From Mycolicibacterium smegmatis (GTDB lineage Bacteria; Actinomycetota; Actinomycetes; Mycobacteriales; Mycobacteriaceae), in the NCBI RefSeq assembly GCF_001457595.1, contig NZ_LN831039.1, positions 2,850,001-2,882,000 of the forward strand: a DNA stretch of 32,000 bases. Reading direction: 5' to 3'. Shown one piece after another: positions 1-15,228 of the stretch (its first letter is position 1; every line of letters begins with the position of its first letter). Below the pieces are notes generated by a model. The model worked only from the letters and a program-made list of their open reading frames with translations, was not told where the DNA came from and searched no databases. A program made the translations under genes and the position numbers.

Positions 1-141
1 CCAGTCGCCTTCGGCGAACGTCTCCTCGGGCAGCATGCCGACATTGACCTTGCGATGCTCACCCGCGACGTCGACCAGGGCGAGTTGTCCGCCGTAGCCG
101 TCGAGCATCCGGACCACCCGTCCGGGAATTCCCAGGCACAT
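1..141 (-). CDS. hypC: HypC/HupF-type [NiFe] hydrogenase assembly chaperone, N-terminal 47 codons (gene continues past the left edge)
   Basis: Manual minus-strand translation from ATG (139-141): MCLGIPGRVVRMLDGYGGQLALVDVAGEHRKVNVGMLPEETFAEGDW. The MCLG(I/V)PG N-terminus with Cys2 is the HypC signature. The start lies 1 nt after the stop of the upstream protease gene. Confidence 0.85.
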   Translation of the reverse strand, partial: MCLGIPGRVVRMLDGYGGQLALVDVAGEHRKVNVGMLPEETFAEGDW

Positions 142-142
142 G

Positions 143-625
143 TCAGGTCCTCCGCACCGGGGTCCGGTGATCTGCCACCGCGGATCTGATCGCCTCGACC
201 GCAGCGGGGACGGCGGCGGCGACCGCGTCGGACAGTCCGATGCCTTCGGCGACACTGCCCACCTCACAACCGATCACGACCGTGGGCGGCACGGCGCCGC
301 CGAGGGCGCGCACGGTCGCGAACACGGCCGCGGGATCCATGGCGTGCGCATCGAGGCCGGGGGTCGTGTCCATGGGGTCGGCCTCGAAGACGCGTAGGGT
401 CCCGGGCCGGACGCGACACGGCAGGGCGTCGACCAGCACCAGGAGGTCCCAGCCCTCGAGCAGGTCGTACGCCAGGTGCAGCCCGCGGATTCCGTAGTCG
501 CACAGACGGACACCCGCGGCAGCCACGTCCGGTGGCACACGGCGCAGCACCTCGGGACCGAACCCGTCGTCACCGAGGAAGATGTTGCCGATGCCGGCCA
601 CCAGGACCGAGTGCGTGATCGTCAC
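143..625 (-). CDS. [NiFe] hydrogenase maturation endopeptidase (HupD/HyaD/HycI family), 160 aa
   Basis: Track ORF. N-terminus VLVAGIGNIFLGDDGFG matches the GxGNxxxxDDGxG motif of hydrogenase C-terminal processing proteases. The co-encoded large subunit carries a 22-aa extension after CxxCxxH, the expected substrate. GTG start sits 3 nt after the micro-ORF stop. Confidence 0.85.
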   Translation of the reverse strand: MTITHSVLVAGIGNIFLGDDGFGPEVLRRVPPDVAAAGVRLCDYGIRGLHLAYDLLEGWDLLVLVDALPCRVRPGTLRVFEADPMDTTPGLDAHAMDPAAVFATVRALGGAVPPTVVIGCEVGSVAEGIGLSDAVAAAVPAAVEAIRSAVADHRTPVRRT

Positions 626-628
626 TCC

Positions 629-748
629 TCACATACGCCGCATCTTCAGATACCGCTGCGCGTCCGGTATCGAACGAACTCCGACCACCACGCCCGCGAC
701 CACCACGGCCGCGACGACGACGACCGCGGCCCACCCGACTGCTTCCAT
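629..748 (-). CDS. 39-aa single-pass membrane micro-protein (not in the ORF track, below its size cutoff)
   Basis: Manual translation: MEAVGWAAVVVVAAVVVAGVVVGVRSIPDAQRYLKMRRM. ATG at 746-748 is preceded by GAGAGGAG with a 6-nt spacer. It fills the otherwise empty gap between the 441-aa ORF (stop 774) and the protease (start 625). 31 of 39 codons end in G/C, like neighbouring genes. Hydrophobic helix followed by a basic tail. Confidence 0.55.
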   Translation of the reverse strand: MEAVGWAAVVVVAAVVVAGVVVGVRSIPDAQRYLKMRRM

Positions 749-773
749 CTGGCACTCCTCTCACTGCGTCCGC

Positions 774-2099
774 TCATATGGGTTCGATTTCGTCCGGCGC
801 GAAGTACAGGTAACGGCCGTACCAGTCGTGCAGGTCGGCCGCCGGATCGTCGTCGAGCACCACACCGACATGCCGTTCGCCGTCGACGTCCTCGTGAATG
901 GAGGCCACCCAGGCGATCCGGTTGTCGAAGAACAGATCCTGTGCGTCGGCGCGGCGAGACGGATGCAGCCGCACCCGGCAGCCGCGGCTGACCGCGACAC
1001 CGTTGACCAGCACGGCATCGACCGCCGGGTCGACGGCGTTGTCCGCCAGCGGATCCCACCACGGCACGCCGTCGGGGACCTCCGGGAGCAGGCTGGACCG
1101 CTCATCGTCGGTGGTGCGCAGTACGCCGTGCAGGTCGAGCATCGCCTCGGCGGACATGGCGTCGCACCGGTCGATGATCTGCGCGGCGAGCGGGTCGGTC
1201 GCGCGCGCCAGCAGCTTCTCCTCGTCGGTCAGCGCCATCACGCGCAGGGTGAGGATCTCGTCGATCTCGCACGAGTCGTACAGGGCGCCCCGGCTCTGCG
1301 CGGCGATCTGGGGGTGGTCGTAGAGGATGATCGGTGAGACCAGCATGAGATCTCGGGTCCCGTCGGGCCCGGCCAGAACCGGGAAGCAGCGGTGCCGCTC
1401 ACACCGCGACACTGCTTCGGCCGCGCGATCATCCGGTTCGAGCAGTGACACGAACTCGCCGTCGTCGATCTCGGCGATCAGGTGGGTGCCGAGGAACGAC
1501 ACCGCGGTCGCGCTCTGCCTGTCCTCGACCGGAGCGGCGCGGTTGCGCACCGTCATCGTCACCCGGAACAGGTCGCCGTCGGGTTCGGCCCGAAGGAGCA
1601 GTTCACCGCACAGGGCCCGGCGGGTGCGAACCAGACGCCCGCCCTCGACGGTCTCGATCTCGCGGCCGCCTTCGACGGTGATCGGGTGCGTTCGCGAAGT
1701 CGTGAGATCATCGACATCGAACGGGCCGAGGGTGACCTGCTGCGCGACGGCCTCGTCCCAGCTCAGCCATGAGCCCGCGGTGGACACGAGTTCGTCGACG
1801 GGGACGAAACTTTCGCGCGCGGCGTCGTCGAGGTGGCGGCGCTCGGCCGACCTGTGCTGCAGCTGCAGGAAACGGACCGTCACCGAGAGCCGTCCGCGGC
1901 CGTCGCCGCGGACGAGGAGCTGTGCGGACATCGAGCTGTTCTCGCCGATCCCGGCGGATTCGGCGCCTTCGGGCCCCAGAACGCCCCACTGCCAACGGCA
2001 CTGGTTCTTGGCCGCATCCCCACGGTAGGGGTACAGCAGGTAACCCTCGTAGAGCACGGCATCGGCGACTGCGAGGACCTGTTCTGTGGCGGTGCTCAT
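774..2099 (-). CDS. Hydrogenase-operon protein of unknown function, 441 aa
   Basis: Track ORF 774..2606 trimmed to ATG 2097-2099 (MSTATEQVLAV...), which overlaps the upstream gene stop as ATGA. The longer version would overlap the upstream gene by about 500 nt. No motif I can assign. No hydrophobic segments. Confidence 0.75.
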   Translation of the reverse strand: MSTATEQVLAVADAVLYEGYLLYPYRGDAAKNQCRWQWGVLGPEGAESAGIGENSSMSAQLLVRGDGRGRLSVTVRFLQLQHRSAERRHLDDAARESFVPVDELVSTAGSWLSWDEAVAQQVTLGPFDVDDLTTSRTHPITVEGGREIETVEGGRLVRTRRALCGELLLRAEPDGDLFRVTMTVRNRAAPVEDRQSATAVSFLGTHLIAEIDDGEFVSLLEPDDRAAEAVSRCERHRCFPVLAGPDGTRDLMLVSPIILYDHPQIAAQSRGALYDSCEIDEILTLRVMALTDEEKLLARATDPLAAQIIDRCDAMSAEAMLDLHGVLRTTDDERSSLLPEVPDGVPWWDPLADNAVDPAVDAVLVNGVAVSRGCRVRLHPSRRADAQDLFFDNRIAWVASIHEDVDGERHVGVVLDDDPAADLHDWYGRYLYFAPDEIEPI

Positions 2100-2752
2100 G
2101 GGATGTCCTCCCGGGCCAGCAGTGTGCCGACCGCTTCGTCGAACGACAGCAACCCCCGCTGGGTCTTGTACCCGGCGAGCCGCTCGAGGGTGTCGCGGTC
2201 CAGCCGCAGCCAGCCGGTGTGGGGGAAGTGCCGCTCCATCAGGAGCTGCCACACCGCGACGGGCATGTCGACGTGGTCCTCGCGGTCCCACGGGATGTGC
2301 TGGACCGCGAGCCCGCCTGCACCGCGGGTGAACACGGTGCCGCTGAACAGGAATTGCAGCGGCACCGTGCCCTCCCGCAGTGCGTGCAGATATTTCGACG
2401 CCGCGACCTCGAAGTCGTACGTGCAGTTCAACGCCAGGTCGATCTGTGTGGCGCCGGTGAAGCCGGGGACCATCGCCGCCGTGTGCTGCCACAGGAACGT
2501 GTGCTGCGTGGTGTTCCAGCGGTCGCGGGGCCCGAACAGATCCAGTAGACCGGCGGCCTCGGCGTCGGTGTAGGCGCGCCGTAGCGGGTCGATGCGAACC
2601 TGACACCGCAGCGCGATCGCGTGCACAGGGTCTTCACCCGTCGCGGACACGCCCAGCCGCGCCGTCAGGATCGGTGTCACCGCAAAGGGTTCCGGCGCGA
2701 TGTCGAGAACCGCGAAGGTGACCGCGAGCGGATCTGCGCCAAGGCTGGTCAC
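2096..2752 (-). CDS. Hydrogenase-operon protein of unknown function, 218 aa
   Basis: Track ORF 2096..3451 trimmed to GTG 2750-2752 (VTSLGADPLAVTFAVLDI...), which overlaps the upstream stop as GTGA. Strong GC3 bias. No recognisable catalytic motif. Confidence 0.7.
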   Translation of the reverse strand: MTSLGADPLAVTFAVLDIAPEPFAVTPILTARLGVSATGEDPVHAIALRCQVRIDPLRRAYTDAEAAGLLDLFGPRDRWNTTQHTFLWQHTAAMVPGFTGATQIDLALNCTYDFEVAASKYLHALREGTVPLQFLFSGTVFTRGAGGLAVQHIPWDREDHVDMPVAVWQLLMERHFPHTGWLRLDRDTLERLAGYKTQRGLLSFDEAVGTLLAREDIP

Positions 2753-3399
2753 GGCGGCACCTCCGTGCCCCGCTCGCGCAGCGAGTCGAAGAACTCCGCG
2801 ATGTACCTGCGGACGTCCTGACCGCCGTCGAAGCCGCGCCACAGCAGCCGCAGCCTCCCCACGAACTCGTAGCACGTGTCGATGGGCACGAGATGACAAG
2901 CGGGAGCGGTGTTCTCGTCGTCGCCCTGGTCGACGCGGAGCATCAACGCCTCGGTGTCGTCGGCGAGCAGCGTGGCCCGTGGATCGGCGTTCTCGATGTC
3001 CTGCCAGGCGGTGAGGTCCAGTTCGGATTCGGTCGCGCCGGCCGGGCCCGGATAGAACGCGGCCACCCGTCCGAGGACGGAGTTGCGCATGAAGAACACC
3101 ACACCGACCGGAATCTGCAGCGCCTCCAGTTCGCGCCTGTCCAGGGCGAATTGCGGAAACGTCAGGTAGCGATCCGGCACGGCGCGGTACCGCAGCTCGG
3201 CATGATCGTGGGTGAACAGCAGATAGCAGGCCCGGCACACGCACATCAGCTGCCGGCCTTCGACGTTGACGACGTGCTGGTGGTGCCCGCCGATCGGTTC
3301 TGCGCACATCTCGCAGCACTCGTCGGTGCTCGCAGCCGGGCCGCCACGGACGTCCCGGGTCGCGCGGATCCGGGCCAGGACGTCCTGCGGGCCGGTCAC
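2749..3399 (-). CDS. Cys-rich hydrogenase-operon protein of unknown function, 216 aa
   Basis: Track ORF. GTG start 3397-3399 overlaps the hhyE stop (GTGA). N-terminal cluster CCEMC-x20-CVCRAC (CCxxC...CxCxxC) looks like a zinc-ribbon/rubredoxin-type or Fe-S metal site. Confidence 0.75.
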   Translation of the reverse strand: MTGPQDVLARIRATRDVRGGPAASTDECCEMCAEPIGGHHQHVVNVEGRQLMCVCRACYLLFTHDHAELRYRAVPDRYLTFPQFALDRRELEALQIPVGVVFFMRNSVLGRVAAFYPGPAGATESELDLTAWQDIENADPRATLLADDTEALMLRVDQGDDENTAPACHLVPIDTCYEFVGRLRLLWRGFDGGQDVRRYIAEFFDSLRERGTEVPP

Positions 3400-4319
3400 G
3401 GTCCGGCCTCACCTGCGGTGGACCACAGGGCCAGCGTCGGCACACCGTCACGCATCAGGACCGGCACGGGTTCGAGCTGGGCGGAATCCGACAGGCCCGC
3501 GTGGACCACGTCGAAACCGGTGGCGCAGTGCGGGCATCGCAACACCTGCCCGGTGAGCACCGCACCGGCGAACGTGCGGCCGCACGATGCGCAGCGGTCG
3601 TGGTAGGCGAAGTATTCGTCGCCGACCCGGCAGGCCATCACCGTGGCTCCGTCGACGCGGAACCCACCCACCTGACCGGGGGAGAGGCCGTCGAGCTCGG
3701 GGACCGCATGCCATTCGACGTGGCGCCTGCCGTCGGAGTGCACACGCGCCAGCAGCGATTGCGCGGGGATCACGGCAGCAGGTTCCGGTTCGGCGTTCAC
3801 CACCTCGATCGACGACACCTCCGGGGCCGCGGCCAGCACGGCGTCGGAGATCGCGAGCTCCAAGGTGGCCGCCGACGACGGGCAGCTCTTGCAGCTGCCG
3901 CTGAACCGCAACCGCGCCACCGCACCGTCTGCCCCTGGCACGACGTCGAGCAGTCGGACATCACCGCCGTGGGAACCGAGATACGGCCGCACGCGGTCGA
4001 GGGCGTCGGCGATGCGGCGGTGCACCGGATGCGGGTGCAGGCCGTGCACCAACAGCAGGCTCGCCACCAGATCGTCGGCCGCGAACGTCCCGGCGAGCTC
4101 CGGTGCGGCCGTGACCGCGGCGCGCACCATGCGTTCCAGCGCGGCGCCGTAGAGGTCGGTGACCTCGCGCACCAACTGCTCGGCGCGGGCCCGCGCGGTC
4201 GGGCCGGCCGCGGCGTCGAGGAGGCTCTCGATCCGCTCACCCGCCGTGCGCCATCGGGCCTCGTCGCCGGACTGTGTGTCAACGGGAACGTCGGCAAGTG
4301 GCGTGACGGCGGGCGCCAT
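3396..4319 (-). CDS. hhyE: Putative iron-sulfur protein: NifU-C-like domain plus Rieske-like domain (HhyE-type), 307 aa
   Basis: Track ORF, starts 3 nt after the hhyL stop. The central segment RVRPYLGSHGGDVRLLDV...GSCKSCPSS resembles a NifU C-terminal CxxC module. The C-terminal segment HDRCASCG-x15-CPHCATGFD resembles a Rieske fold with altered ligands. The position matches the Fe-S protein reported as required for Hhy activity in M. smegmatis (from memory). Confidence 0.8.
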   Translation of the reverse strand: MAPAVTPLADVPVDTQSGDEARWRTAGERIESLLDAAAGPTARARAEQLVREVTDLYGAALERMVRAAVTAAPELAGTFAADDLVASLLLVHGLHPHPVHRRIADALDRVRPYLGSHGGDVRLLDVVPGADGAVARLRFSGSCKSCPSSAATLELAISDAVLAAAPEVSSIEVVNAEPEPAAVIPAQSLLARVHSDGRRHVEWHAVPELDGLSPGQVGGFRVDGATVMACRVGDEYFAYHDRCASCGRTFAGAVLTGQVLRCPHCATGFDVVHAGLSDSAQLEPVPVLMRDGVPTLALWSTAGEAGP

Positions 4320-4322
4320 GCG

Positions 4323-6119
4323 TCAGTCCCCGGTCGCGGACTGTGTCGGAGTGTGCAGCAGGTCCAAGGTTTTTCCGCCGCCGAGGTACATGTGCACACC
4401 GCACGGCAGGCACGGATCGAAGCTGCGCACCGTGCGCATGATGTCGATGCCCTTGAAGTGCTCCCGATCGTTCTCCTCGAAGATCGGCTGACCCTGCACG
4501 GCGTCCTCGTAGGGCCCCGGTGTGCCGTAGCTGTCACGGGGATTGGCGTTCCACGGCGTCGGTGGGTACGGGTGGTAGTTCGCGATCTTGCCGTCGCGGA
4601 TCACCATGTGGTGGCTCAGCACGCCGCGAACGGCCTCGGTGAACCCGCAGCCGATGCCCTCGTCGGGCACCTCGAACTTCTCCCACGTCTTGGTGCGGCC
4701 CGCGCGGATCTCGGTGAGTGCCTTCTCGGCGAAGTGCAGCGCACACGCCGCGGCGTAGGCCTGGAAGTACGTCCTGGCGCGGTTGCGTTCGATGGTGTTG
4801 CTGCCCTTGGCCGGGATCTTCCACTCGAATTCGACGGGTCCCTTGAGCGCGGTCTTGGGCAGGTTGATCTGCACGCTGTTGCCGGTCGACCTGACGTAGC
4901 CGATGTCGACGAGGCCTGCCAGCGCGGTCGCCCACAACCGTGCGAGCGGTCCGCCCCCGGTGTCGAGGGCGAGGTGGTCCTTGCCGTCGAACCACCGCGG
5001 CGACATCACCCAGCTGTAGTTCTCGTCGAAGTCGCGCTTCTGCGGCTTGGGGTTGGTGTGCTGATTCCACGGATGCCGCCGGTCCACCGGATTGCCCAGC
5101 GGATCGGTCTTGACGAACATCTCCTGGTCTTCCCAGTCGTCGTAATAGCTGTGGCCCAACAGGATCCGGATGCCGAGGTTGATATCCACCAGCGATGTGG
5201 TGACCAGCTTGCCGTCGACGACCACGCCGGGGGTGACGAACATCTTGCGGCCCCAGGCCTCCATGTCGCGGTAGCTGAAGTTGCAGTGCTCGGGGTCCTG
5301 GAACGAACCCCAGCACCCCAGCAGCGTGCGGCGCAGACCCACCTGCTCGTACCCGGGCAGTGCCTCGTAGAAGAAGTCGAAGAGGTCGTCGTGCATCGGG
5401 ACGACCTTCTTCATGAACTCGACGTAGCGCATCAACCGTGTCATGTAGTCGGTCATCAGCTGGATCGTCGCCACGGTGCCGACCCCGCCGGGATACAGCG
5501 TGGACGGGTGCACATGGCGACCTTCCATGAGGCAGAACATCTCTCGGGTCCACCGGCTGACCTGCAGCGCCTCACGGTAGAACTCGCCGGTGAACGGGTT
5601 GAGGGCCCGCATGATGTCGGCGATCGTCCGGTAGCCGTGCATGCCCGCGTGCGGCGCCTCGGTGTTCTCGGCCTTGGCCAGCACACTCGGATTGGTCTCG
5701 GAGACCATCTTCTCGCAGAAGTCCACCCCGACCAGGTTCTCCTGGAAGATGTTGTGGTCGAACATGTACTCCGCGGCCTCACCCAGGTTGACGATCCACT
5801 CGGCGACGTGGGGCGGTTGCACGCCGTAGGCCATGTTCTGGGCGTAGCACGAGCACGTGGCGTGGTTGTCACCGCAGATGCCGCAGATGCGACTGGTGAT
5901 GAAGTGCGCGTCCCGCGGATCCTTGCCCTTCATGAACAGCGAGTAGCCCCGGAAGATCGACGACGTGCTGTGGCATTCGACGACCTCGCGGTTCTCGAAG
6001 TCGATCTTGGTGTAGATGCCGAGGCTGCCGACGATGCGTGTGATGGGGTCCCACGACATCTCCACCAGTTGGCCCGGCTCGCGTTCGGTGTCTGACGGCT
6101 TGGGAGCTGTGGTGGTCAT
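4323..6119 (-). CDS. hhyL: [NiFe] hydrogenase large subunit, group 1h-like, 598 aa
   Basis: Track ORF 4323..6221 trimmed to ATG 6117-6119 (MTTTAPKPSD...). N-terminal Ni-Fe ligand motif TSRICGICGDNH. C-terminal motif SFDPCLPCGVH followed by a 22-aa tail (MYLGGGKTLDLLHTPTQSATGD). Confidence 0.95.
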   Translation of the reverse strand: MTTTAPKPSDTEREPGQLVEMSWDPITRIVGSLGIYTKIDFENREVVECHSTSSIFRGYSLFMKGKDPRDAHFITSRICGICGDNHATCSCYAQNMAYGVQPPHVAEWIVNLGEAAEYMFDHNIFQENLVGVDFCEKMVSETNPSVLAKAENTEAPHAGMHGYRTIADIMRALNPFTGEFYREALQVSRWTREMFCLMEGRHVHPSTLYPGGVGTVATIQLMTDYMTRLMRYVEFMKKVVPMHDDLFDFFYEALPGYEQVGLRRTLLGCWGSFQDPEHCNFSYRDMEAWGRKMFVTPGVVVDGKLVTTSLVDINLGIRILLGHSYYDDWEDQEMFVKTDPLGNPVDRRHPWNQHTNPKPQKRDFDENYSWVMSPRWFDGKDHLALDTGGGPLARLWATALAGLVDIGYVRSTGNSVQINLPKTALKGPVEFEWKIPAKGSNTIERNRARTYFQAYAAACALHFAEKALTEIRAGRTKTWEKFEVPDEGIGCGFTEAVRGVLSHHMVIRDGKIANYHPYPPTPWNANPRDSYGTPGPYEDAVQGQPIFEENDREHFKGIDIMRTVRSFDPCLPCGVHMYLGGGKTLDLLHTPTQSATGD

Positions 6120-6221: not shown

Positions 6222-7277
6222 CTACCAGGTGCGGGTGGCCCCGGATTCCAGCTTCGTACCGCGATGCCGCCACCGTGGTTCCTTGTCCACGGTGCGGCCG
6301 GTGATGTGGCGCAGGCTGCGGATGGCCGAGCCGTAGAGACCCGATGCGGCAGTGGAGACCTTGCCGCCGGGCGGCTCGTCCATGAACGGCATGAACTTGT
6401 CGGGGAATCCCGGCATCGTGCACCCGATGCAGATGCCGCCGACGTTGGGGCAGCCGCCGATACCGTTGATCCACCCGCGTTTCGGCACGTTGCACTTGAC
6501 CACGGGGCCCCAACACCCGAGTTTGACAATGCATTTGGGGGAGCCGTACTCGGTGGCGAAGTCGCCCTGCTCGTAGTATCCGGCGCGGTCGCACCCCTCG
6601 TGCACCGACTGTCCGAACAGCCACTTCGGCCGCAGCGCGTCGTCCAGCGGGATCATGGGCGCCTGATCGGTGGCCATGTACAGCAGGTAGGTCAGGGTCT
6701 CGGCCAGGTTGTCGGGATGGATCGGGCAGCCCGGCACGCACACGATCGGTATGCCCGCCTTGCTCTTCCAGTCCCAGCCCAGATAGTCGGGCACGCCCAT
6801 GGCGCCGGTCGGGTTACCGGCCATGGCATGGATCCCGCCGTAGGTGGCGCACGTGCCGACGGCGACCACCGCGGTGGCCTTCGGGGTGAGCCGGTCGAGC
6901 CACTCGCTCGTGGTGATCGGTTGCCCGGTCGCCGGGTCGTTACCGAACCCGCACCAATACCCTTCGTTCTTGATCTCCTCGTTGGGGATCGAGCCCTCGA
7001 CGACGAGTACGAACGGGTCGAGTTCACCGCGTTCGGCTCTGAAGAACCAGGCGAGGAAATCGTCGGCCCCGCCCGTGGGCCCGCATTCGAAATCGATGAG
7101 GGGCCAGTGGACGGCGATCTTGGGCAGGCCGGGGAGCGCCCCGAGAGCGATCTCCTCGATGCTCGGTTGCGTGGCGGCAGTCAACGCCACAGAATCACCG
7201 TCACAACTCAATCCGGCGTTGATCCAAAGCACATGGATCAGTGCCTGTTCCGCCTTGACTGCAGCCTCCGTTGGCAT
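6222..7277 (-). CDS. hhyS: [NiFe] hydrogenase small subunit without Tat signal, 351 aa
   Basis: Track ORF. It begins MPTEAAVKAEQALIHVLWINAGLSCDGDS with no RRxFxK twin-arginine leader. Fe-S ligand-rich segments: GTCATYGG, CVPGCP, GCWGPVVKCNVP, CPNVGGICIGC. No C-terminal membrane helix. Confidence 0.95.
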   Translation of the reverse strand: MPTEAAVKAEQALIHVLWINAGLSCDGDSVALTAATQPSIEEIALGALPGLPKIAVHWPLIDFECGPTGGADDFLAWFFRAERGELDPFVLVVEGSIPNEEIKNEGYWCGFGNDPATGQPITTSEWLDRLTPKATAVVAVGTCATYGGIHAMAGNPTGAMGVPDYLGWDWKSKAGIPIVCVPGCPIHPDNLAETLTYLLYMATDQAPMIPLDDALRPKWLFGQSVHEGCDRAGYYEQGDFATEYGSPKCIVKLGCWGPVVKCNVPKRGWINGIGGCPNVGGICIGCTMPGFPDKFMPFMDEPPGGKVSTAASGLYGSAIRSLRHITGRTVDKEPRWRHRGTKLESGATRTW

Positions 7278-7342
7278 ACGTCACAGCTTTCCGGGGCCCG
7301 GGCTGGGGGTCCCAACGTCCCGAGTGAAGACGCGCGCGGTGT

Positions 7343-7358
7343 GTTCCAGCGCTGGAAC
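7343..7358. promoter_or_regulatory. Perfect 16-bp palindrome GTTCCAGCGCTGGAAC in the hypB-hhyS spacer (candidate operator or RNA hairpin)
   Basis: Read directly from the sequence. It lies in the 109-nt gap between the hypB stop (7387) and the hhyS start (7277). Confidence 0.3.
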
Positions 7359-7386
7359 TCGGTTTACTCCGGCGAGATCGGCTTTG

Positions 7387-8160
7387 TCAATGGATCCTTT
7401 CGCCCAACCACTCGTACCACGCCGAGAGACCATCGCCCCGCGTTGCCGAGGTCTGCAGGATGGTGACGGCAGGGTTCACCGATCGTGCGTAGCGACAACA
7501 GGTTTCGATGTCAAAGTTCACGTAGGGAAGCAGGTCGATCTTGTTGAGGATCACCAGCCCGGCCGCGGCGAACATGTGGGGGTACTTGAGGGGTTTGTCG
7601 GTGCCTTCGGTGACCGAGATGACGACGACCTTCTGGTACTCGCCGAGATCGAACAGCGCCGGACACACGAGGTTTCCGACATTCTCGATGAACAACAGCG
7701 AACCGGGGGAGGGATCGAGTGCGTCGATTGCACGGTGCACCATCGACGCGTCGAGGTGGCATCCGGCGCCGGTGTTGACCTGAACCGCGCGTGCGCCGGC
7801 CGCACGGATCCGGTCGGCGTCGAGCAGGGTCTCCTGATCGCCCTCGATCACCGCGACCGCGTGGTCACGCCCGAGATCGCGGATCGTGCGTTCGAGCAGC
7901 GTGGTCTTGCCCGCCCCCGGCGAACTCGTGATGTTGAGCGCCAGGATCCCGCGCGCGGTGAGCCATTCGCGGTTCTGTTGGGCGAGCATGTCGTTCTTGG
8001 CCAGCACGCGCTGTTCGAGCGTGACGGTCTCGGTGGGCGGGTGGTCGTGGGTGTGTGGGTGATCGTGATCGTGCTCGTGGTGGTGCGGCGGCGCTTCGCC
8101 GGCGAGGGTGACCGGGACACCGGCGCCGTCGGCCCCGCCGCATCCGCAGGTTGCGCACAT
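7387..8160 (-). CDS. hypB: Hydrogenase nickel-insertion GTPase HypB, 257 aa
   Basis: N-terminal MCATCGCG metal-binding motif, His-rich stretch HHHEHDHDHPHTHDH, and P-loop SSPGAGKTTLL. The ATG lies 1 nt after the hypA stop. Confidence 0.95.
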   Translation of the reverse strand: MCATCGCGGADGAGVPVTLAGEAPPHHHEHDHDHPHTHDHPPTETVTLEQRVLAKNDMLAQQNREWLTARGILALNITSSPGAGKTTLLERTIRDLGRDHAVAVIEGDQETLLDADRIRAAGARAVQVNTGAGCHLDASMVHRAIDALDPSPGSLLFIENVGNLVCPALFDLGEYQKVVVISVTEGTDKPLKYPHMFAAAGLVILNKIDLLPYVNFDIETCCRYARSVNPAVTILQTSATRGDGLSAWYEWLGERIH

Positions 8161-8161
8161 G

Positions 8162-8491
8162 TCAGCTCACCTCCATCGACAGGATCCTGAGTTCGGCGCC
8201 CGCGGTCACCTCGACGTCGGCGCTGCCGCACGGGCACAGCAGGATGAGGTCGCCGAGGGTGAAGTCGGCGCCGCAGGTGCGGCAGTGGGCGGCGCCGGGG
8301 CGGATGTCGAGATCGAGCCGCGCGCCGTCGGCCGCCGTGCCCTCGGTGATCAGGTCGAAGCAGAACAGCATCGAGTCGGGGACCACCGCACACAACGCGC
8401 CCACCTCGAGGCGCACGCTGTGCACGCGCCGTCCCGCCGCGTGCTCACACACCGCATCGACGACGCTCTGGGTTATCGCCATCTCGTGCAT
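8162..8491 (-). CDS. hypA: Hydrogenase nickel metallochaperone HypA, 109 aa
   Basis: N-terminus MHEMAITQSVV (the MHE Ni-binding motif). Zinc site CRTCG...CPCG. Confidence 0.9.
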   Translation of the reverse strand: MHEMAITQSVVDAVCEHAAGRRVHSVRLEVGALCAVVPDSMLFCFDLITEGTAADGARLDLDIRPGAAHCRTCGADFTLGDLILLCPCGSADVEVTAGAELRILSMEVS

Positions 8492-8589
8492 CGCTGTCCG
8501 ATCGGACCCGGGATGCTCCCACGGTAGGCCTGTCGTGTGCCGTCCGGCGCAAAACCGCGATGCGGGTCCGGACAGCTCGGCGTGTCCAC

Positions 8590-8617
8590 TTGAATCGAAC
8601 AGGTGTTCGTCTACTGT
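8590..8617 (+). promoter_or_regulatory. LexA-controlled recA promoter: -35 TTGAAT, SOS (Cheo) box TCGAACAGGTGTTCG in the spacer, -10 TACTGT
   Basis: GAAC-N4-GTTC core at 8597-8608 matches the mycobacterial SOS box consensus TCGAAC-N4-GTTCGA. The hexamers are 16 nt apart. The element lies about 100 nt upstream of the recA ATG. Confidence 0.8.
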
Positions 8618-8637
8618 GGTGAAGAGTTCGACCGGAC

Positions 8638-8660
8638 TTGTCGGTGGTCTGCTCTAACGT
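8638..8660 (+). promoter_or_regulatory. RecA-NDp (LexA/RecA-independent, PafBC-type) promoter motif
   Basis: TTGTCGGTG-N8(GTCTGCTC)-TAACGT fits the published consensus tTGTCRgtg-N8-TAnnnT exactly. It lies 56 nt upstream of the recA ATG. Confidence 0.75.
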
Positions 8661-8715
8661 CACGGCCAACCGATCGGAACACCGGTCAGACACGACTACT
8701 CGGAGAGGCACCACC

Positions 8716-9765
8716 ATGGCGCAGCAGGCCCCAGATCGCGAAAAGGCCCTCGAACTGGCGATGGCCCAGATCGACAAGAATTTCGGCAAAGGCTCGGTGA
8801 TGCGCCTCGGCGAAGAGGTGCGCCAGCCGATCTCGGTGATCCCCACCGGTTCCATCTCACTGGATGTGGCGCTCGGCATCGGCGGCCTGCCGCGGGGCCG
8901 CGTCATCGAGATCTACGGCCCGGAGTCCTCGGGTAAGACCACCGTGGCCCTGCATGCCGTCGCCAACGCGCAGGCCGCGGGCGGTATCGCGGCGTTCATC
9001 GACGCCGAGCACGCGCTGGATCCCGAGTACGCCAAAAAGCTGGGTGTGGACACCGACTCGCTGCTGGTGTCGCAGCCCGACACCGGTGAGCAGGCGCTGG
9101 AGATCGCCGACATGCTGGTGCGGTCCGGCGCGCTGGACATCATCGTCATCGACTCGGTCGCCGCCCTGGTGCCGCGCGCCGAGATCGAGGGCGAGATGGG
9201 TGACAGCCACGTCGGCCTGCAGGCCCGCCTGATGAGCCAGGCGCTGCGCAAGATGACCGGCGCGTTGAACAACTCGGGGACCACCGCGATCTTCATCAAC
9301 CAGCTCCGCGAGAAGATCGGTGTGATGTTCGGCTCGCCCGAGACCACCACGGGCGGTAAGGCACTGAAGTTCTACGCCTCGGTCCGCCTCGACGTGCGCC
9401 GTATCGAGACGCTCAAGGACGGCACCGACGCGGTCGGTAACCGCACCCGCGTCAAGGTCGTCAAGAACAAGGTCTCCCCGCCGTTCAAGCAGGCCGAGTT
9501 CGACATCCTCTACGGCCAGGGCATCAGCCGCGAGGGTTCGCTCATCGACATGGGCGTCGAGCACGGCTTCATCCGCAAGTCCGGGTCCTGGTTCACCTAC
9601 GAGGGTGAGCAGCTGGGCCAGGGCAAGGAGAACGCCCGCAAGTTCCTGCTGGAGAACACCGACGTCGCCAACGAGATCGAGAAGAAGATCAAAGAGAAGC
9701 TCGGTATCGGCGCCGTCGTGACCGCTGAAGCCGATGACGTCCTCCCGGCCCCGGTTGACTTCTGA
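8716..9765 (+). CDS. recA: Recombinase RecA, 349 aa, intein-free
   Basis: Track ORF 8638..9765 trimmed to ATG 8716, preceded by GGAGAGG. Sequence [33 protein letters not shown], with Walker [10 protein letters not shown]. Confidence 0.97.
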
Positions 9766-10300
9766 GCCGTCGGACGTCCCCGACGGCGAGCAGGCGCAGG
9801 ATCCTCGCACCCGTGAGGAGCAGGCCAAGAACGTCTGCCTGCGCCTGCTCACCGTGCGGGCACGTACCCGGGCCGAGCTCGAAACCCAGCTGACCAAGCG
9901 CGGCTATCCCGACGACGTCAGCGCCAGGGTTCTCGACCGGCTCACCGAGGTCGGCCTGATCGACGATGAGGACTTCGCCGAGCAGTGGGTGCGTTCACGC
10001 CACCTCAACGCCGGAAAAGGCAAGCGCGCCTTGGCTGTCGAGCTCCGTAAGAAGGGCGTGGACGACGAGGTGATCTCGTCGGCTCTGGCCGATCTCGACC
10101 CGGCCGCCGAGCGTCAACGGGCCGAGCAGTTGGTGCGCGACAAGTTGCGCCGCGAACGTCTCGACGGCACACCGGAAAACGACGTCAAGGTCACCCGCAG
10201 GCTCGTGGGCATGCTGGCGCGCCGCGGATACAACCAGTCGATGGCCTACGACGTGGTCAGCGTCGAGTTGGCCAACGAGCGGGAGCGCCGGCGGGTCTAG
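9734..10300 (+). CDS. recX: RecA regulator RecX, 188 aa
   Basis: Track ORF. Shows the RecX repeat architecture ([31 protein letters not shown]...). It overlaps the recA 3' end by 32 nt in another frame. Confidence 0.9.
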
Positions 10301-10357
10301 CGGTCGTGAGTCGGCTCCGGCACCGTCGTGACCGGGGACCACCGGGGCGGCGATCCG

Positions 10358-11257
10358 TTACTTGTCGGCCTGCCCGGTGAGCACATCGGCACCCGGCGCG
10401 CCCTCCTGTTCGACCGCTTCTGCGTGCATGGGTGCGGGGCCGCGGGTGGATCTGCGCAGCCTGCGTTCGATGCGTGTCGCCAGGGCCGACAGCGCGAAGT
10501 TCACGCTGATCATCAGGACCGCGATCACGATCAGTGCCGGCAGGTAGTTGCCGTAGGACGAACCGATGACGGTGCCTTGCCGCACCATCTCGACGAACGT
10601 GATCTGGTAGCCGATCGCGGTGTCCTTGAGCACCACCACCAACTGCGATACCAGCACGGGCAGCATCGCGGTGATGGCCTGCGGCAGCTGGATCATCCGC
10701 ATGGTCTGCCACCACGACAAGCCGAGCGATGCGGCCGCCTCGGATTGCCCGCGGGGCAGGGAATGCACACCGGCGCGGACGATTTCGGCGATGACCGAAC
10801 CGTTGTAGAGCGTGAGCCCGGTGATGACGCCGGCCAGCGCGAGGTGCTTGGACGGGAACACGTCGTACGCCGCGTAGAAGAAGTACGCGAAGATCATCAT
10901 GATCAGCACCGGGACGGCGCGGAAGAACTCCACGATGACCGTGCACACCCAGCGGATCGGCCGGATCGGCGCCAACCGGCCGACCCCGAGCGCCAGCCCC
11001 AGGGCCAGCGCCAGCACGATCGACACCGCGGCCGCGGTCAGCGTGCCCTGCACGCCCGGCAACACGTAGGTCTTCCACAGGTTCGCGGTGAGGAACGGTT
11101 CCCACTTCTCCGACGTCAACTGGTTCTTGGTCCACAGTTGCCACAGCACGAACGCGACCACCAGTGTGCCGATCACCGCCGACACCGCGGTCAGGATCCC
11201 GTTGCGTACCCGCGCGCGCGGTCCGGGCGCGTCGAACAGAACCGATGCTCCGGTCAC
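10358..11257 (-). CDS. gluD: Glutamate ABC transporter permease GluD, 299 aa
   Basis: Polytopic His/Glu/Gln/Arg-type permease. GTG start overlaps the gluC stop (GTGA). Last gene of the gluABCD arrangement known from Corynebacterium glutamicum. Confidence 0.85.
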   Translation of the reverse strand: MTGASVLFDAPGPRARVRNGILTAVSAVIGTLVVAFVLWQLWTKNQLTSEKWEPFLTANLWKTYVLPGVQGTLTAAAVSIVLALALGLALGVGRLAPIRPIRWVCTVIVEFFRAVPVLIMMIFAYFFYAAYDVFPSKHLALAGVITGLTLYNGSVIAEIVRAGVHSLPRGQSEAAASLGLSWWQTMRMIQLPQAITAMLPVLVSQLVVVLKDTAIGYQITFVEMVRQGTVIGSSYGNYLPALIVIAVLMISVNFALSALATRIERRLRRSTRGPAPMHAEAVEQEGAPGADVLTGQADK

Positions 11258-11934
11258 CGCGCCACCGCCAGTCTCTTCCCCAGCCAGCCGAACAACAGGC
11301 CCACCGGAAGCGTCAGGAGGATGAAGCCCAGCGCCATGATGGTGCCGACCGTCAGCAGCGCGGCGGTGTTCTCGATCATCGCCTTCATGAGCAGGGCGGC
11401 CTCGGCGACACCGATGGCCGAGGCGATCGTGGTGTTCTTGATCAGCGCGATCAACACCGACCCGAGCGGGATGATCACGGCGCGAAAAGCCTGCGGCAGC
11501 AGGATGTATCGCAGGTTCTGCCCGAACGTGAAACCGAGTGAGCGGGCCGCCTCGGCCTGACCCAGCGGCACGGTGTTCACACCCGACCGGATCGTCTCAC
11601 ACACGAAAGACGCGGTGTAGACGGTCAATCCGAGCACGGCGAGCCGGAAGTTGCTGTCGGCGATCGACGTGGGGGAGTTGGGGTCGACCAGCGTGATCCG
11701 CAGGGTCTGGCCGACGCCGAACGAGCAGAACAGGATGATGAGCGTCAGCGGGGTGTTGCGGACCACGTTGACATACGCCGTCCCCATCCAGTTCATCACC
11801 GGGATCGGTGCCAGCCGCATCGCGGCCAGCACCGTGCCCAGGATGAGCGCCCCAACCGCGGAGTACACCGTCAGTTGGATGGTTGTCCAGAACGCCGCGA
11901 AGATCTCGTCGCGGTACTCGTCGAATATTTCCAC
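11254..11934 (-). CDS. gluC: Glutamate ABC transporter permease GluC, 226 aa
   Basis: Track ORF. Amino-acid ABC permease with an EAA-like loop (GQAEAARSLGFTFGQNLRYILLPQA). Confidence 0.85.
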   Translation of the reverse strand: MEIFDEYRDEIFAAFWTTIQLTVYSAVGALILGTVLAAMRLAPIPVMNWMGTAYVNVVRNTPLTLIILFCSFGVGQTLRITLVDPNSPTSIADSNFRLAVLGLTVYTASFVCETIRSGVNTVPLGQAEAARSLGFTFGQNLRYILLPQAFRAVIIPLGSVLIALIKNTTIASAIGVAEAALLMKAMIENTAALLTVGTIMALGFILLTLPVGLLFGWLGKRLAVAR

Positions 11935-11952
11935 GGTTGAGGCGGCGTCCGA

Positions 11953-12774
11953 TCAGTCGCGGTCGACGGCGGGAGGCTGCGGTGCCTGGATGCCTGCCGG
12001 TCCGAGGTTCTTGTCGAAGGCCTCTTTCCAGGCGCCGCTGGATTCCATCTTCTCGATCGCGTCGTTGATCTTGTTGCGCAGCTCGGTGTCGTCCTTCTTC
12101 AGGCCGATGCCGTAGCGCTCCTCGGAGAACGTGTCACCGACGAGCTTGAAGGTGCCTGGGGACTGTGCGGCGTAACCGGCGAGGATCACCTCGTCGGTGG
12201 TCAACGCGTCGACCGCGCCGTTCTTGAGCGCCTCGACGCACGCCGAGTAGGTGTCGTACTGCTGCAACTGCACGCCCGGGTACTCATCCTTGATCCGCTG
12301 GGCCGGCGTGGAACCCGACACCGAGCACAGCTTCTTGTTGTTCTCCAGCGACGCGGCGCCGGTGATGTCGTTGTTGTCGGCGCGCACCAGGAGGCTCTGC
12401 CCCGTGATCAGGTACGGCCCGGCGAAGTCGACCTTCTCCTTGCGGGAGTCGGTGATCGAGTAGGTGGCGGCGATGAAGTCGACCTGACCGTTCTGGATCA
12501 GCGTCTCCCGCTGCGCCGACGGGGCCTCCTTCCACTCGATCTGGTCCTCGCTGTAGCCCAGCTCGTTGGCCACGTACTTGGCGACGTCGACGTCGAACCC
12601 GGTGAGCGTGCCGTCGGGCTGCTTCAGACCGAGACCCGGCTGGTCGTACTTGGTTCCGATGACGATCGTGTCGCTGTCGCCGCCGCTGTCGCCACCACCG
12701 CATGCCGTCGCCGCGAACGGCAGGGCGATGGCGAGTGCGACAGCACCGGCGACGCGTTTGGGAATGGACCGCAT
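11953..12774 (-). CDS. gluB: Glutamate-binding lipoprotein GluB, 273 aa
   Basis: Track ORF trimmed to ATG 12772-12774 (MRSIPKRVAGAVALAIALPFAATACGGG), preceded by AAAGGAA. Signal peptide plus lipobox-like ATAC. Family-3 solute-binding protein body. Confidence 0.85.
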   Translation of the reverse strand: MRSIPKRVAGAVALAIALPFAATACGGGDSGGDSDTIVIGTKYDQPGLGLKQPDGTLTGFDVDVAKYVANELGYSEDQIEWKEAPSAQRETLIQNGQVDFIAATYSITDSRKEKVDFAGPYLITGQSLLVRADNNDITGAASLENNKKLCSVSGSTPAQRIKDEYPGVQLQQYDTYSACVEALKNGAVDALTTDEVILAGYAAQSPGTFKLVGDTFSEERYGIGLKKDDTELRNKINDAIEKMESSGAWKEAFDKNLGPAGIQAPQPPAVDRD

Positions 12775-12799
12775 TGTTCTGATTCCTTTCACCGGAACG

Positions 12800-13585
12800 T
12801 TAGTGATGCAGGATTTTGCCGAGAAAATCTTTGGCACGTTCGCTTTTCGGGTTGTCGAAGAACTCGGCAGGTGAGGAGTCCTCGACGATGGCGCCGTCGG
12901 ACATGAACACCACGCGGTCCGACGCCCGGCGCGCGAAACCCATCTCGTGGGTGACCACGACCATGGTCATGCCCTCCGATGCCAGCGACGACATCACGGC
13001 GAGGACCTCGTTGATCATCTCCGGGTCGAGCGCGCTGGTGGGCTCGTCGAACAGCATGACCTTGGGGTTCATCGCCAGCGAGCGGGCGATCGCGACGCGC
13101 TGCTGCTGACCACCTGACAACTGGGCGGGGTACTTGTCGGCCTGGTTGGCCACCCCGACGCGTTCGAGGAGGGCGAGCGCGTTCTCCCTGGCCTTGTCCT
13201 TGGCGAACCTGCGGACCTTCATCGGCGCGAGGGTGACGTTCTCCAGGATTGTCTTGTGCGCGAACAGGTTGAACGACTGGAACACCATGCCCACATCCGA
13301 ACGCAGCTGTGCGAGCCTGCGCCCCTCGGCGGGCAGGACCTTCCCGTCGACCATGATCGTGCCGGAATCGATGGTCTCGAGGCGATTGATCGTGCGGCAC
13401 AACGTCGATTTGCCCGAGCCCGAGGGGCCGAGCACCACCACGACCTGACCCTTGCCGACGTCGAGGTTGATGTCCTTGAGCACATGGAGTTGCCCGAAGT
13501 GCTTGTTTACTCCCTGAAGTGAGATCATCGGCACATCTGATTGCGCCGCACCGTCGACCTGCGGCTGCTCGCCGGGGCTTCCCAT
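12800..13585 (-). CDS. gluA: Glutamate ABC transporter ATPase GluA, 261 aa (alternative start at MISLQGV 19 codons downstream)
   Basis: Walker [10 protein letters not shown], signature LSGGQQQRV, Walker [12 protein letters not shown]. Near-collinear with C. glutamicum GluA as I remember it. Confidence 0.9.
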
Positions 13586-13680
13586 GGGTGGAGACCTTAC
13601 CCAGGGATCGGCCGGTCTGCCTGCATCTTGTGAATCCGCCGGGTTAACGTCCCGCGTGCGTACGTCCGTACCATGGGTCC

Positions 13681-15228
13681 GTGACTTCGATGGTGACCAG
13701 GGACGAGACAGCCGAGGCCGAGGGCCTGCGACCCGCTGTCGGCTCGTCGCGCGTTCGCACCTATCAGGTCCGCACGTACGGCTGTCAGATGAATGTGCAC
13801 GACTCCGAGCGGCTGTCGGGGCTGCTGGAATCCGCCGGCTACCAGCGTGCGGCCGAAGGTACCGACGCCGACATCGTGGTGTTCAACACGTGCGCGGTAC
13901 GTGAGAACGCCGACAACAAGCTGTACGGGAACCTGAGTCATCTCGCACCGCGCAAGCAGGCCGATCCGAACATGCAGATCGCCGTGGGCGGATGCCTCGC
14001 GCAGAAAGACCGTGACGCGGTGCTGCGCCGCGCCCCCTGGGTGGACGTCGTCTTCGGCACCCACAACATCGGGTCGCTGCCGACGCTGCTCGAGCGGGCC
14101 CGGCACAACCGCGAGGCCCAGGTCGAGATCGTCGAGGCGCTGCAGGAGTTCCCGTCGGCGCTGCCTGCCTCCCGTGAATCCGCTTACGCGGCATGGGTTT
14201 CCATCTCGGTCGGCTGCAACAACACCTGCACGTTCTGCATCGTGCCGTCGTTGCGTGGCAAGGAGGTCGACCGTCGGCCGGGCGACATCCTCGCCGAGGT
14301 GCAGTCACTCGTGGACCAGGGCGTGCTCGAGATCACGCTGCTCGGCCAGAACGTCAACGCCTACGGGGTCTCGTTTGCCGACCCGGAACTGCCCCGCGAC
14401 CGCGGCGCGTTTGCCAAGCTGCTGCGGGCGTGCGGTGGCATCGACGGTCTCGAACGTGTCCGCTTCACTTCGCCGCACCCGGCCGAGTTCACCGACGACG
14501 TGATCGAGGCCATGGCGGCCACCCCCAATGTGTGCCCCACGCTGCACATGCCGCTGCAGTCGGGTTCCGACCGCATCCTCAAGGCCATGCGGCGCTCCTA
14601 CCGCGCCGAGCGCTTCCTCGGGATCATCGACAAGGTGCGCGCGGCCATCCCGCACGCGGCCATCACCACCGATCTCATCGTCGGTTTCCCCGGCGAGACC
14701 GAAGAGGACTTCCAGGCCACGCTCGATGTCGTCGAGCGGGCGAGGTTCGCCGGCGCGTTCACGTTCCAGTACTCGAAGCGTCCGGGAACCCCCGCCGCCG
14801 ACATGCCCGATCAGTTGCCCAAAGACGTTGTCAGCGAGCGTTATCAGCGCCTGATCGCGTTGCAGGAGCGCATCTCGCTGGAGCAGAACTCCGCGCAGAT
14901 CGGCCAGACCGTCGAACTTCTCGTCGCCACCGGCGAGGGCCGCAAGGACGCGAGCACCGCGCGCATGTCCGGGCGGGCCCGCGACGGGCGCCTGGTGCAT
15001 TTTCTGCCCGGGGACAACGTGATCCGGCCGGGTGACGTCGTGACCACCACCGTCACCGGGGCGGCGCCGCACCACCTGATCGCCGACGCCCCGATCATCG
15101 AACACCGCCGCACCCGCGCGGGCGACGCGCACGCGGCAGGCCAGAAACCCCGCACCGGTGTGGGTCTCGGCATGCCGCGCATCGGCGCGCCCGCGCCGAG
15201 TACGGCGGCAGAAGGGTGTGGCTGTTGA
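13681..15228 (+). CDS. miaB: tRNA (i6A37) methylthiotransferase MiaB, 515 aa (GTG 13681, or ATG 13690)
   Basis: UPF0004 N-domain [11 protein letters not shown], radical-SAM motif [11 protein letters not shown], and a TRAM-like C-terminus. Confidence 0.92.

Follow-up and report, generated by a model that had tools for sequence, protein, structure and literature searches.

Four ORFs between hhyE and hupD in the hhy operon of M. smegmatis

The stretch of DNA analysed here (hereafter the window) comprises 32,000 nt of Mycolicibacterium smegmatis (RefSeq assembly GCF_001457595.1, contig NZ_LN831039.1, positions 2,850,001 to 2,882,000) and contains the Hhy locus, which encodes a group 1h [NiFe]-hydrogenase. 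Much of the consumption of atmospheric H2 by soils is attributed to hydrogenases of this group. We focused on four open reading frames (ORFs), called A to D, located between hhyE and hupD, the gene of the maturation protease. The original prediction, made from the sequence alone, had presented them as proteins without assignable function and as candidates for an undescribed assembly, tethering or quinone-coupling apparatus specific to atmospheric-H2 oxidisers. On the minus strand, the genes of the cluster follow each other in the order hypA, hypB, hhyS, hhyL, hhyE, A, B, C, D, hupD, hypC. The central ones are listed below with their window coordinates.

hhyS: 6222-7277, minus strand, small subunit, identified by its translation and a match to primer HhyF
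hhyL: 4323-6119, minus strand, group 1h large subunit, with L1 and L2 motifs and a match to primer HhyR
hhyE (MSMEG_2718): 3396-4319, minus strand, NifU-like and Rieske-like domains (Pfam NifU, E 6.6e-17)
ORF A: 3399-2749, minus strand, 216 aa, GTG start
ORF B: 2752-2096, minus strand, 218 aa, GTG start
ORF C: 2099-774, minus strand, 441 aa, ATG start
ORF D (micro-ORF): 748-629, minus strand, 39 aa, ATG start
hupD: 143-625, minus strand, [NiFe]-hydrogenase large-subunit C-terminal endopeptidase (TIGR00072, E 1.5e-36; Pfam HycI, E 1.1e-12)

The coordinates, lengths, overlaps and spacings first given for the four ORFs were all correct, and the flanking genes are indeed HhyE and a maturation protease of the HycI/TIGR00072 type. 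The Rieske match of hhyE (E 0.0087) lies under the Pfam gathering score. In the literature hhyS, hhyL and hhyE are numbered MSMEG_2720, MSMEG_2719 and MSMEG_2718 (PMC6883350; bioRxiv 769216), which by position makes A MSMEG_2717, B MSMEG_2716 and C MSMEG_2715. Published primers for strain mc2155 match the window exactly at the end of hhyL (HhyR, 4323-4340) and at the start of hhyS (HhyF, 7258-7277).

HhyL carries the L1 motif TSRICGICGDNH and the L2 motif SFDPCLPCGVH, followed by MYLGGGKTLDLLHTPTQSATGD; these two motifs constitute the published signature of group 1h large subunits (PMC5364354). The N-terminus of HhyS has no RRxF motif and thus no Tat (twin-arginine) leader. With both HhyL motifs and a leaderless small subunit, the cluster belongs to group 1h (Hhy/Hof). 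The statement that the operon encodes neither a cytochrome b nor a Tat leader was upheld, since no Pfam match to a b-type cytochrome anchor and no multi-pass protein was found in the operon. Beyond DPCxxCxxH, HhyL ends in a 22-aa extension (window 4323-4391, minus strand), which is the expected substrate of the protease. Across phyla this extension measures 21-25 residues, with the consensus MYLGxGKxLExxHSPT. Its conservation suggests that it is recognised by more than the protease active site.

The genes from hhyE to C are chained by 4-nt stop/start overlaps: GTGA at 3399-3396 (hhyE/A), GTGA at 2752-2749 (A/B) and ATGA at 2099-2096 (B/C). The ATG of D is found 25 nt after the stop codon of C, with GAGAGGAG upstream, and the GTG of hupD, at position 625, 3 nt past the stop codon of D. 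Each of the ORFs A to D has a purine-rich Shine-Dalgarno-like sequence a few bases upstream. This coupling is conserved in related loci: the 4-nt overlap was observed for A/B in 73 of 82 loci and for B/C in 74 of 82 (an overlapping start being available in 81), and for hhyE/A in 44 of 80.

Synteny with group 1h hydrogenase genes

Related loci were collected by a genome scan, seeded with a diverse ORF C alignment, and a metagenome scan, seeded with DUF6084 of the Cupriavidus necator type (DUF, domain of unknown function; DUF6084 is the family of ORF B, see below). The closest 80 loci were kept in each scan, so that the results apply to these rather than to the distant members of the C family. 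Among the 80 loci of the genome scan, 79 were labelled Actinomycetota, and the order hhyS-hhyL-hhyE-A-B-C-(D)-hupD was observed in each locus where the contig allows. In the metagenome loci with enough flank, hhyL was present in 29/29, A in 57/57, C in 46/46 and hupD in 35/35. The module was located between hhyL and the NifU-like hhyE on one side and hupD on the other in every locus with enough flank, in at least four phyla. The L1 motif was detected in 73 of 87 loci and L2 in 81 of 87, the misses fitting contigs that end inside or before hhyL; wherever the corresponding portion of hhyL is retained, the locus has the group 1h motifs and the 21-25-residue HhyL extension.

Annotated records with the module include C. 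necator H16 pHG1, Methylocystis parvus and a Mycobacterium intracellulare plasmid, and it recurs on gene-called contigs of Thermoanaerobaculia, Gemmatimonadaceae and Ilumatobacteraceae. On pHG1, the genes for NifU, DUF5947 (the family of ORF A), DUF6084, a hypothetical protein and the protease follow in series and are presumably PHG066-070; PHG067 is the orthologue of ORF A and PHG068 that of ORF B. This AH/Hof ('actinobacterial-type') cluster has the same order as the window (hofK-hofG-NifU-DUF5947-DUF6084-hypothetical-protease), also with overlapping genes. It differs in the absence of the micro-ORF D and in its NifU protein, which has no Rieske-like domain.

No homologue of A, B or C was found outside a group 1h locus, nor any orthologue away from hydrogenase genes, among the closest 80 loci per scan and the others examined. 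The initial grouping of these four proteins with one another and with the hydrogenase was well founded, in view of this strict synteny and of the fusions A::C, C::D and C::HupD described below.

Protein families and the putative metal site of ORF A

ORF A belongs to Pfam DUF5947 (PF19372; 236.6 bits, E 1.8e-70, profile positions 2-176 of 177), ORF B to DUF6084 (PF19562; 313.6 bits, E 7.4e-94) and ORF D to DUF6893 (PF21833; 55.3 bits, E 6.4e-15, profile positions 2-32 of 32), the Pfam gathering scores being 25, 25 and 24.6 bits, respectively. ORF A is moreover 100% identical to an NCBI entry named 'DUF5947 family protein [Mycolicibacterium smegmatis]'. ORF C has no match in Pfam, NCBIfam or PADLOC; its homologue search returned at least 8000 scored proteins, and every one named by its source was called 'hypothetical'. 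Given these E-values and the number of ORF C homologues, A to D are genes and not chance ORFs.

The absence of an assignable function, as first proposed, stands in part: Pfam and NCBIfam profiles place none of the four in a well-characterised family, DUF5947, DUF6084 and DUF6893 being of unknown function and C having no family, but three of the proteins do have Pfam families. Nor is the gene set undescribed. Its orthologues have been listed in several papers as conserved ORFs without assigned function, with speculation about electron transfer (PMC4377017, PMC6883350, PMC7174314, PMC13332983), an idea that Schmitz et al. (2020) raised for Pyrinomonas too (PMC7174314). A full-text literature search on the three DUF names yielded nothing relevant, and a search on the locus tags found no functional study. 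Sequence searches of the PDB with A, B and C gave nothing meaningful. Common ancestry of A, B and C was considered and rejected, as judged by hhalign probabilities of at most 1.3%.

ORF A has an alpha/beta domain at the C-terminus and is rich in Cys and His at the N-terminus. Its cysteines are spaced as C28-C29-x2-C32-x20-C53-x-C55-x2-C58, which is the CCxxC-x20-CxCxxC metal site noticed at the outset. This cysteine pattern is present, but its description needed amendment: C28 is not conserved, and H40, H42 and C176 are invariant as well. Six Cys and two His (C29, C32, H40, H42, C53, C55, C58 and C176) are thus invariant across phyla, in the pattern C-x2-C-x7-H-x-H-x10-C-x-C-x2-C plus C176. 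The pattern fits a CxxC...CxxC knuckle site with further ligands and would represent a putative metal site, for Zn, Fe, Ni or an Fe-S cluster. No ferredoxin, rubredoxin or Rieske profile of Pfam matched ORF A. Its AlphaFold2 (AF2) model has a mean predicted local distance difference test score (pLDDT) of 71, with a mostly confident C-terminal domain and values below 50 in the Cys/His region, and a Foldseek comparison of the model with the PDB gave no significant neighbour.

In ORF B, a cross-phylum alignment revealed 45 invariant positions, with no Cys or His among these. Alignment and hydropathy showed neither a conserved Cys/His motif nor a hydrophobic segment. The DUF6084 gene is missing from L082 (handles of this form designate individual loci), a lineage in which A is fused to C.

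ORF C is a hub of natural fusions

An exhaustive search with ORF C retrieved 3678 cluster representatives (889 at E <=1e-30), and the C. necator orthologue, PHG069, shares 34.5% identity with ORF C over 99% of its length. The AF2 model has a mean pLDDT of 75, rising to ~90 in the core. From the N-terminus onwards, it predicts a helix, a large beta-sandwich modelled with confidence (residues 56-255), helical and then disordered segments, and a small SH3-like C-terminal domain. The N-terminal helix bears the nearly invariant motif YEGYxLYPYR, and the invariant acidic and histidine residues of the protein are E18, D261, D275, E278, D302, H206 and H324. As for ORF B, no conserved Cys/His cofactor motif and no hydrophobic segment were found by alignment and hydropathy.

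Foldseek related the C-terminal 70-80 residues of ORF C to PetP, the SH3-like peripheral subunit of the cyanobacterial cytochrome b6f complex, with TM-scores of 0.78 and 0.66 and root-mean-square deviations (rmsd) of 2.1-2.3 A. SH3-like folds are common and this likeness implies no function. A second match, of the ORF C model (window 777-2099) to DrmA of the DISARM anti-phage system (7s9v_A, 7s9w_A), had a probability of 1.0 and an E-value of 5e-6. It was dropped as a functional clue in view of its TM-score of 0.22 and rmsd of 22 A. Neither PADLOC nor the PDB profile search backed a link to DrmA, and the paper on the DISARM structure offers no domain that would explain it; we treat the match as a local similarity without explanation. 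A stretch resembling acyl carrier proteins (E 0.5-0.9) was also rejected, since it lacks the phosphopantetheine serine.

Fusions recur in the C family. Seven of the 10 longest cluster representatives have a C-terminal HycI/HupD protease domain. With one such fusion as query, the 120 best clusters, which reach down to 45% identity, included 77 single-frame C::HupD fusions. Their named sources include Thermoanaerobaculia, Gemmatimonadaceae and Ilumatobacteraceae, and some are located on multi-megabase contigs. In all seven C::HupD loci inspected, the fusion is an uninterrupted ORF at the DNA level, in the usual hhyL-NifU-DUF5947-DUF6084 setting. Two forms occur. In the first (L083, L087, L170 and L171), a long region separates C from the protease (a linker of ~60 residues in L083 and L171) and D is nested within it; in the second (L085, L086 and L172), the linker measures 10-29 residues and DUF6893 follows the protease. 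These two architectures suggest at least two independent fusion events.

Other partners of ORF C were also found. A is directly fused to C in P0463 and P0476, where DUF6084 is missing from the locus, and one cluster, P0443, carries an in-frame C::D fusion, to which we give little weight because an indel is possible. ORF C is therefore a hub of natural fusions, and A::C, C::D and C::HupD all fit members of the module acting together. C and HupD in particular form a Rosetta-stone pair, being separate in the window and fused in a single ORF elsewhere in the same genomic context. The recurrence of these fusions points to ORF C as a partner of the maturation protease, which is a new lead for a module known to specialists as 'hypothetical proteins'; the Cys/His pattern of DUF5947 and the conserved micro-protein D are two others.

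One explanation would dissociate the module from the enzyme itself, A-C being linked to the hydrogenase by co-regulation alone and acting in regulation, stress protection or an unrelated enzyme activity. It could draw on the absence of homology between A-C and characterised families, on the invariant residues of ORF C, which could form a catalytic site, and on the weak local match to DrmA. Nevertheless, hhyL co-occurs with the module in all loci with enough flank, translational coupling is conserved, the fusions join a hydrogenase-specific protease, and no homologue lies outside group 1h loci among the closest loci examined. We thus consider this explanation very improbable.

The micro-protein D

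D has a single N-terminal transmembrane helix and a basic tail, ending in the motif PD-x2-RY-[LM]-[KR]-x-R-x-M; its consensus contains no conserved His. Its Kyte-Doolittle maximum over 19 aa is 2.82, versus at most 1.55 for every other protein of the operon, and D is the sole operon product with a segment of transmembrane grade. An ORF scan recovered it as a 39-aa peptide in 76 of 78 scannable actinobacterial loci, and it was found in 28 of the 35 metagenome loci with enough flank. D always adjoins hupD, on either side. Annotation often skips it, yet most lineages retain it beside hupD. No match to D was detected in the C. necator locus; the PLSDB gene table of the M. intracellulare record, itself incomplete, has no entry for it.

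The C. necator enzyme is reported to be cytoplasmic (PMC4377017) and of low affinity (PMC7174314). Since D is absent there, it appears as the best candidate of the operon for a membrane tether, which would hold either the finished enzyme or the machinery that assembles it, in a comparison that covers two or three organisms.

In the Thermoanaerobaculia-type loci, D is nested out of frame within the gene of the C::HupD fusion: at 9181-9282 within the gene 7812-9836 in L083, as an ORF ending at 9537 within the gene 8001-10013 in L087, and as ORFs ending at 4579 in L170 and 4441 in L171. The nested peptide is intact and conserved, with its transmembrane helix and the ending PDxxRYLKIxRM-stop, in a frame that differs from that of C::HupD. 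The low-complexity linker of these fusions is thus the alternative-frame reading of D, an overlapping nested gene. Selection on D persists in this nested arrangement.

Between D and hupD, an extra ORF of 105-186 aa, without Pfam match, occurs in some loci of Nocardia, Nocardioidaceae and other Actinobacteria (L039 11429-11755; L046 11592-12101; L049 3193-3519; L053 3794-4309; L061 11801-12127; L077 10637-10978; L078 3996-4556).

A leaderless YceI-like gene follows hupD and DUF6893 in 30 of the 35 metagenome loci with enough flank among L088-L167; further coordinates are 9977-10489 in L085, 10022-10555 in L087 and 12879-13430 in L082. None was found in the 80 loci of the genome scan nor in the window. 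YceI-family proteins bind polyisoprenoids. By analogy, this gene may encode an accessory for quinone or lipid handling in non-actinobacterial lineages, where it might supply quinone.

A division of labour could be imagined from these data: A, B and C would mature the enzyme, and D, along with the YceI-like protein in non-actinobacterial lineages, would anchor Hhy or supply it with isoprenoid quinone. D indeed varies in position (C-D-HupD or C-HupD-D), whereas A-C are fixed; it has no counterpart in C. necator, and it stays selected when nested; the frequencies of YceI (30/35) and D (28/35) in the metagenome loci and the polyisoprenoid binding of YceI proteins are also in line with it. However, D always adjoins the protease gene and is once fused to C, so that it is linked no less to the maturation genes than to the enzyme. 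In addition, actinobacterial loci have D without YceI, and the 14-residue cytoplasmic tail of D offers little docking surface. On balance such a division appears rather unlikely to us.

Comparison with other hydrogenase systems

O2-tolerant group 1d hydrogenases depend on isoenzyme-specific accessory genes that cluster with a specific endopeptidase downstream of the structural genes and are needed to mature one given enzyme aerobically. The slot held here by the module is that of the accessory genes in hya/hox/hup operons. A-D thus resemble in operon position the group 1d accessory proteins HoxL/O/Q/R/T/V of the Ralstonia eutropha membrane-bound hydrogenase (MBH), HyaE/HyaF of Escherichia coli and HupF-K of Rhizobium. 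HoxR, a rubredoxin-like member of the group 1d set, is a metal protein rich in Cys (cited in PMC6883350).

The likeness does not extend to the proteins themselves. No sequence or profile similarity was detected between A-D and these accessory proteins in Pfam or NCBIfam, and no structural match for A and C. More generally, A-D gave no Pfam or NCBIfam match at E <=0.01 to the HypA-F, HupH, HyaE/HoxO, HupK/HoxV or HoxR families, so that the term 'maturation factor' would designate a proposed function of A-D and not family membership. Accessory families of the group 1d type were likewise absent from the Pfam hits in seven gene-called group 1h loci. Chaperones of the HoxO/Q type would find no Tat leader to bind on the small subunits of group 1h. 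We know of no protease fusion among group 1d accessory proteins.

Two types of membrane-associated subunit were also compared. HucM is a small, unannotated operon protein that acts as scaffold, membrane stalk and quinone conduit of Huc, the group 2a hydrogenase of M. smegmatis, and ensures membrane association without a cytochrome b (PMC10017518). HucM, an amphipathic coiled coil, is recovered together with HucSL on purification; in contrast, A-C are absent from purified group 1h enzymes, the models of A and C are not coiled coils and D, with its 39 aa, is a true transmembrane helix. Homology to HucM was not detected. Cytochrome b subunits (HyaC/HoxZ/HupC) serve as membrane anchor and quinone reductase, a function that the operon appears to lack. 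These subunits are multi-pass haem proteins, whereas the helix of D is the only hydrophobic element of the operon.

A possible role of the module in hydrogenase maturation

The published biochemistry of group 1h enzymes bears on the role of the module, which we infer from sequence comparisons and models. The enzyme purified from Methylacidiphilum fumariolicum SolV gives two bands, HhyL and HhyS alone (PMC7174314), and that of C. necator has been described as cytoplasmic and made up of two subunits (PMC4377017). For the activity band of M. smegmatis Hhy, the published list of 'selected' proteins names HhyS and HhyL, and none of A-D. Deletion of hhyE abolishes even the dye-linked activity of Hhy, stained with nitroblue tetrazolium (NBT), and is complemented in trans (PMC6883350). 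Loss of the dye-linked reaction is an assembly-type defect and not that of a missing downstream electron acceptor. A polar effect of the deletion on A-C was considered and rejected, since hhyE alone complements.

The C::HupD fusions, the operon slot, the two-subunit composition of purified enzymes and the hhyE phenotype lead us to favour a role in assembly: A-C may well be maturation or assembly accessory proteins specific to group 1h and devoted to HhyS/HhyL, rather than permanent electron-transfer subunits. We hold this proposal with even confidence. ORF C would act as a cytoplasmic scaffold or chaperone beside HupD at the last maturation step, the removal of the 21-25-residue C-terminal extension of HhyL, and would hold the HhyL precursor or gate its cleavage. 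The Cys/His metal site of ORF A might handle a metal or an Fe-S cluster alongside the NifU-like HhyE; alternatively, ORF A might guard the redox state in aerobic maturation. ORF B would be an auxiliary partner, dispensable in some lineages. D, a single-pass membrane peptide encoded next to hupD, would probably place the machinery or the finished enzyme at the membrane. Of the roles initially offered, assembly thus fits the evidence best, whereas tethering or quinone coupling by A-C is disfavoured, D remaining a candidate tether.

Several observations weigh against this proposal. A fusion indicates functional linkage but not which function, and a permanent subunit could fuse to its neighbour. 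Loosely bound partners could be lost from detergent-purified enzyme or be passed over in lists of 'selected' proteins. The Foldseek comparisons gave no structural similarity of the A and C models to a known hydrogenase chaperone. The eight invariant Cys/His of ORF A could bind a redox-active Fe-S cluster, and PHG067 has been proposed as an electron acceptor (as cited in PMC6883350). The operon does encode a membrane peptide, D, and Hhy of M. smegmatis is firmly membrane-bound and sensitive to 2-n-heptyl-4-hydroxyquinoline-N-oxide (HQNO) (bioRxiv 769216). Finally, homologues of A-C are reported not to be encoded in SolV, which has a membrane-associated, high-affinity group 1h enzyme (PMC7174314). 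SolV thus reportedly matures its working enzyme without these genes, so the module is not universally required. Together with the presence of A-C in C. necator, whose enzyme is cytoplasmic and of low affinity, this also runs counter to the idea that the module is specific to atmospheric-H2 oxidisers.

Some of these points would be accounted for if A-D were stoichiometric subunits of the enzyme, tethering HhySL and passing electrons on from the distal HhyS cluster, via A, to menaquinone, with D as anchor; they would then serve Hhy as HucM serves Huc, or as cytochrome b serves group 1d enzymes. HhyS and HhyL have no cytochrome b, Tat leader or anchor of their own and yet form a membrane-bound, HQNO-sensitive enzyme, whose anchoring subunit is still unidentified in a 2026 comparative paper, which counts four hypothetical proteins in the cluster (PMC13332983). 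Besides the invariant Cys/His of A and the proposal made for PHG067, the conserved transmembrane peptide D is missing precisely in C. necator, the 4-nt overlaps fit synthesis at fixed ratios, and HucM provides a precedent. On the other hand, C is fused to the maturation protease in many lineages. A-C are kept with the soluble enzyme of C. necator and reported absent with the membrane-associated, high-affinity one of SolV, and active enzymes have been purified as large and small subunits alone (PMC4377017, PMC7174314). B and C have no cofactor motif and no amphipathic or hydrophobic element, which disfavours a part for them in electron transfer, and no protein resembling a quinone site is present. 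We consider it doubtful that A-D are such subunits.

A variant would combine D, C and A in a membrane-docking and electron-exit apparatus unrelated to cytochrome b or HucM, in which D would anchor a scaffold formed by C on the cytoplasmic side and an Fe-S cluster of A would relay electrons from HhyS to menaquinone. In non-actinobacterial lineages the YceI-like lipid binders would deliver menaquinone, and the protease fusions would reflect assembly on the same platform. We regard this construction as speculative and distinctly unlikely.

The role of the module bears on how a hydrogenase can be matured in air without the accessory proteins of other O2-tolerant hydrogenases, and on how an enzyme without anchor binds the membrane and reaches menaquinone. 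If A-C do act in maturation, the genes would probably be needed for the heterologous production of air-stable, high-affinity hydrogenases in biocatalysis.

Neighbouring genes and other observations in related loci

Three further features of the window lie around the hydrogenase genes.

hypC (5' end): 1-140, minus strand, start MCLGIPGRVV, running past the window edge
recA: 8638-9765, plus strand, divergent from hypA and upstream limit of the hydrogenase cluster
188-aa ORF: 9734-10300, plus strand, overlapping recA

HypC follows hupD in related loci too, and the genes beyond the module there are hupD, hypC, hypD and hypE. The 188-aa ORF downstream of recA could be recX, which is a guess.

Acidobacteriota- and Gemmatimonadota-type loci carry a small ORF of 67-80 aa between hhyS and hhyL (L083 3869-4093; L086 4101-4343; L087 4064-4267), which has no Pfam match and is not present in the window. 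The metagenomic contig L082 contains tandem hhyS-hhyL pairs (1969-4844 and 6391-9319) split by a PAS histidine-kinase gene, as well as an A::C fusion gene, without a DUF6084 gene at the locus. In L168, a 437-kb plasmid of M. intracellulare, the full Hhy cluster is directly followed by a nuoA-G (NADH-quinone oxidoreductase) operon, at 9944-15302.

In C. necator, M. intracellulare and Methylocystis parvus, the small subunit of the group 1h enzyme bears the RefSeq name 'hydrogenase expression protein HypE' (L081 4223-5278; L168 1933-2988; L169 2278-3357). Position and homology to HhyS identify this label as a systematic mis-annotation, which has also been remarked upon elsewhere (PMC13332983).

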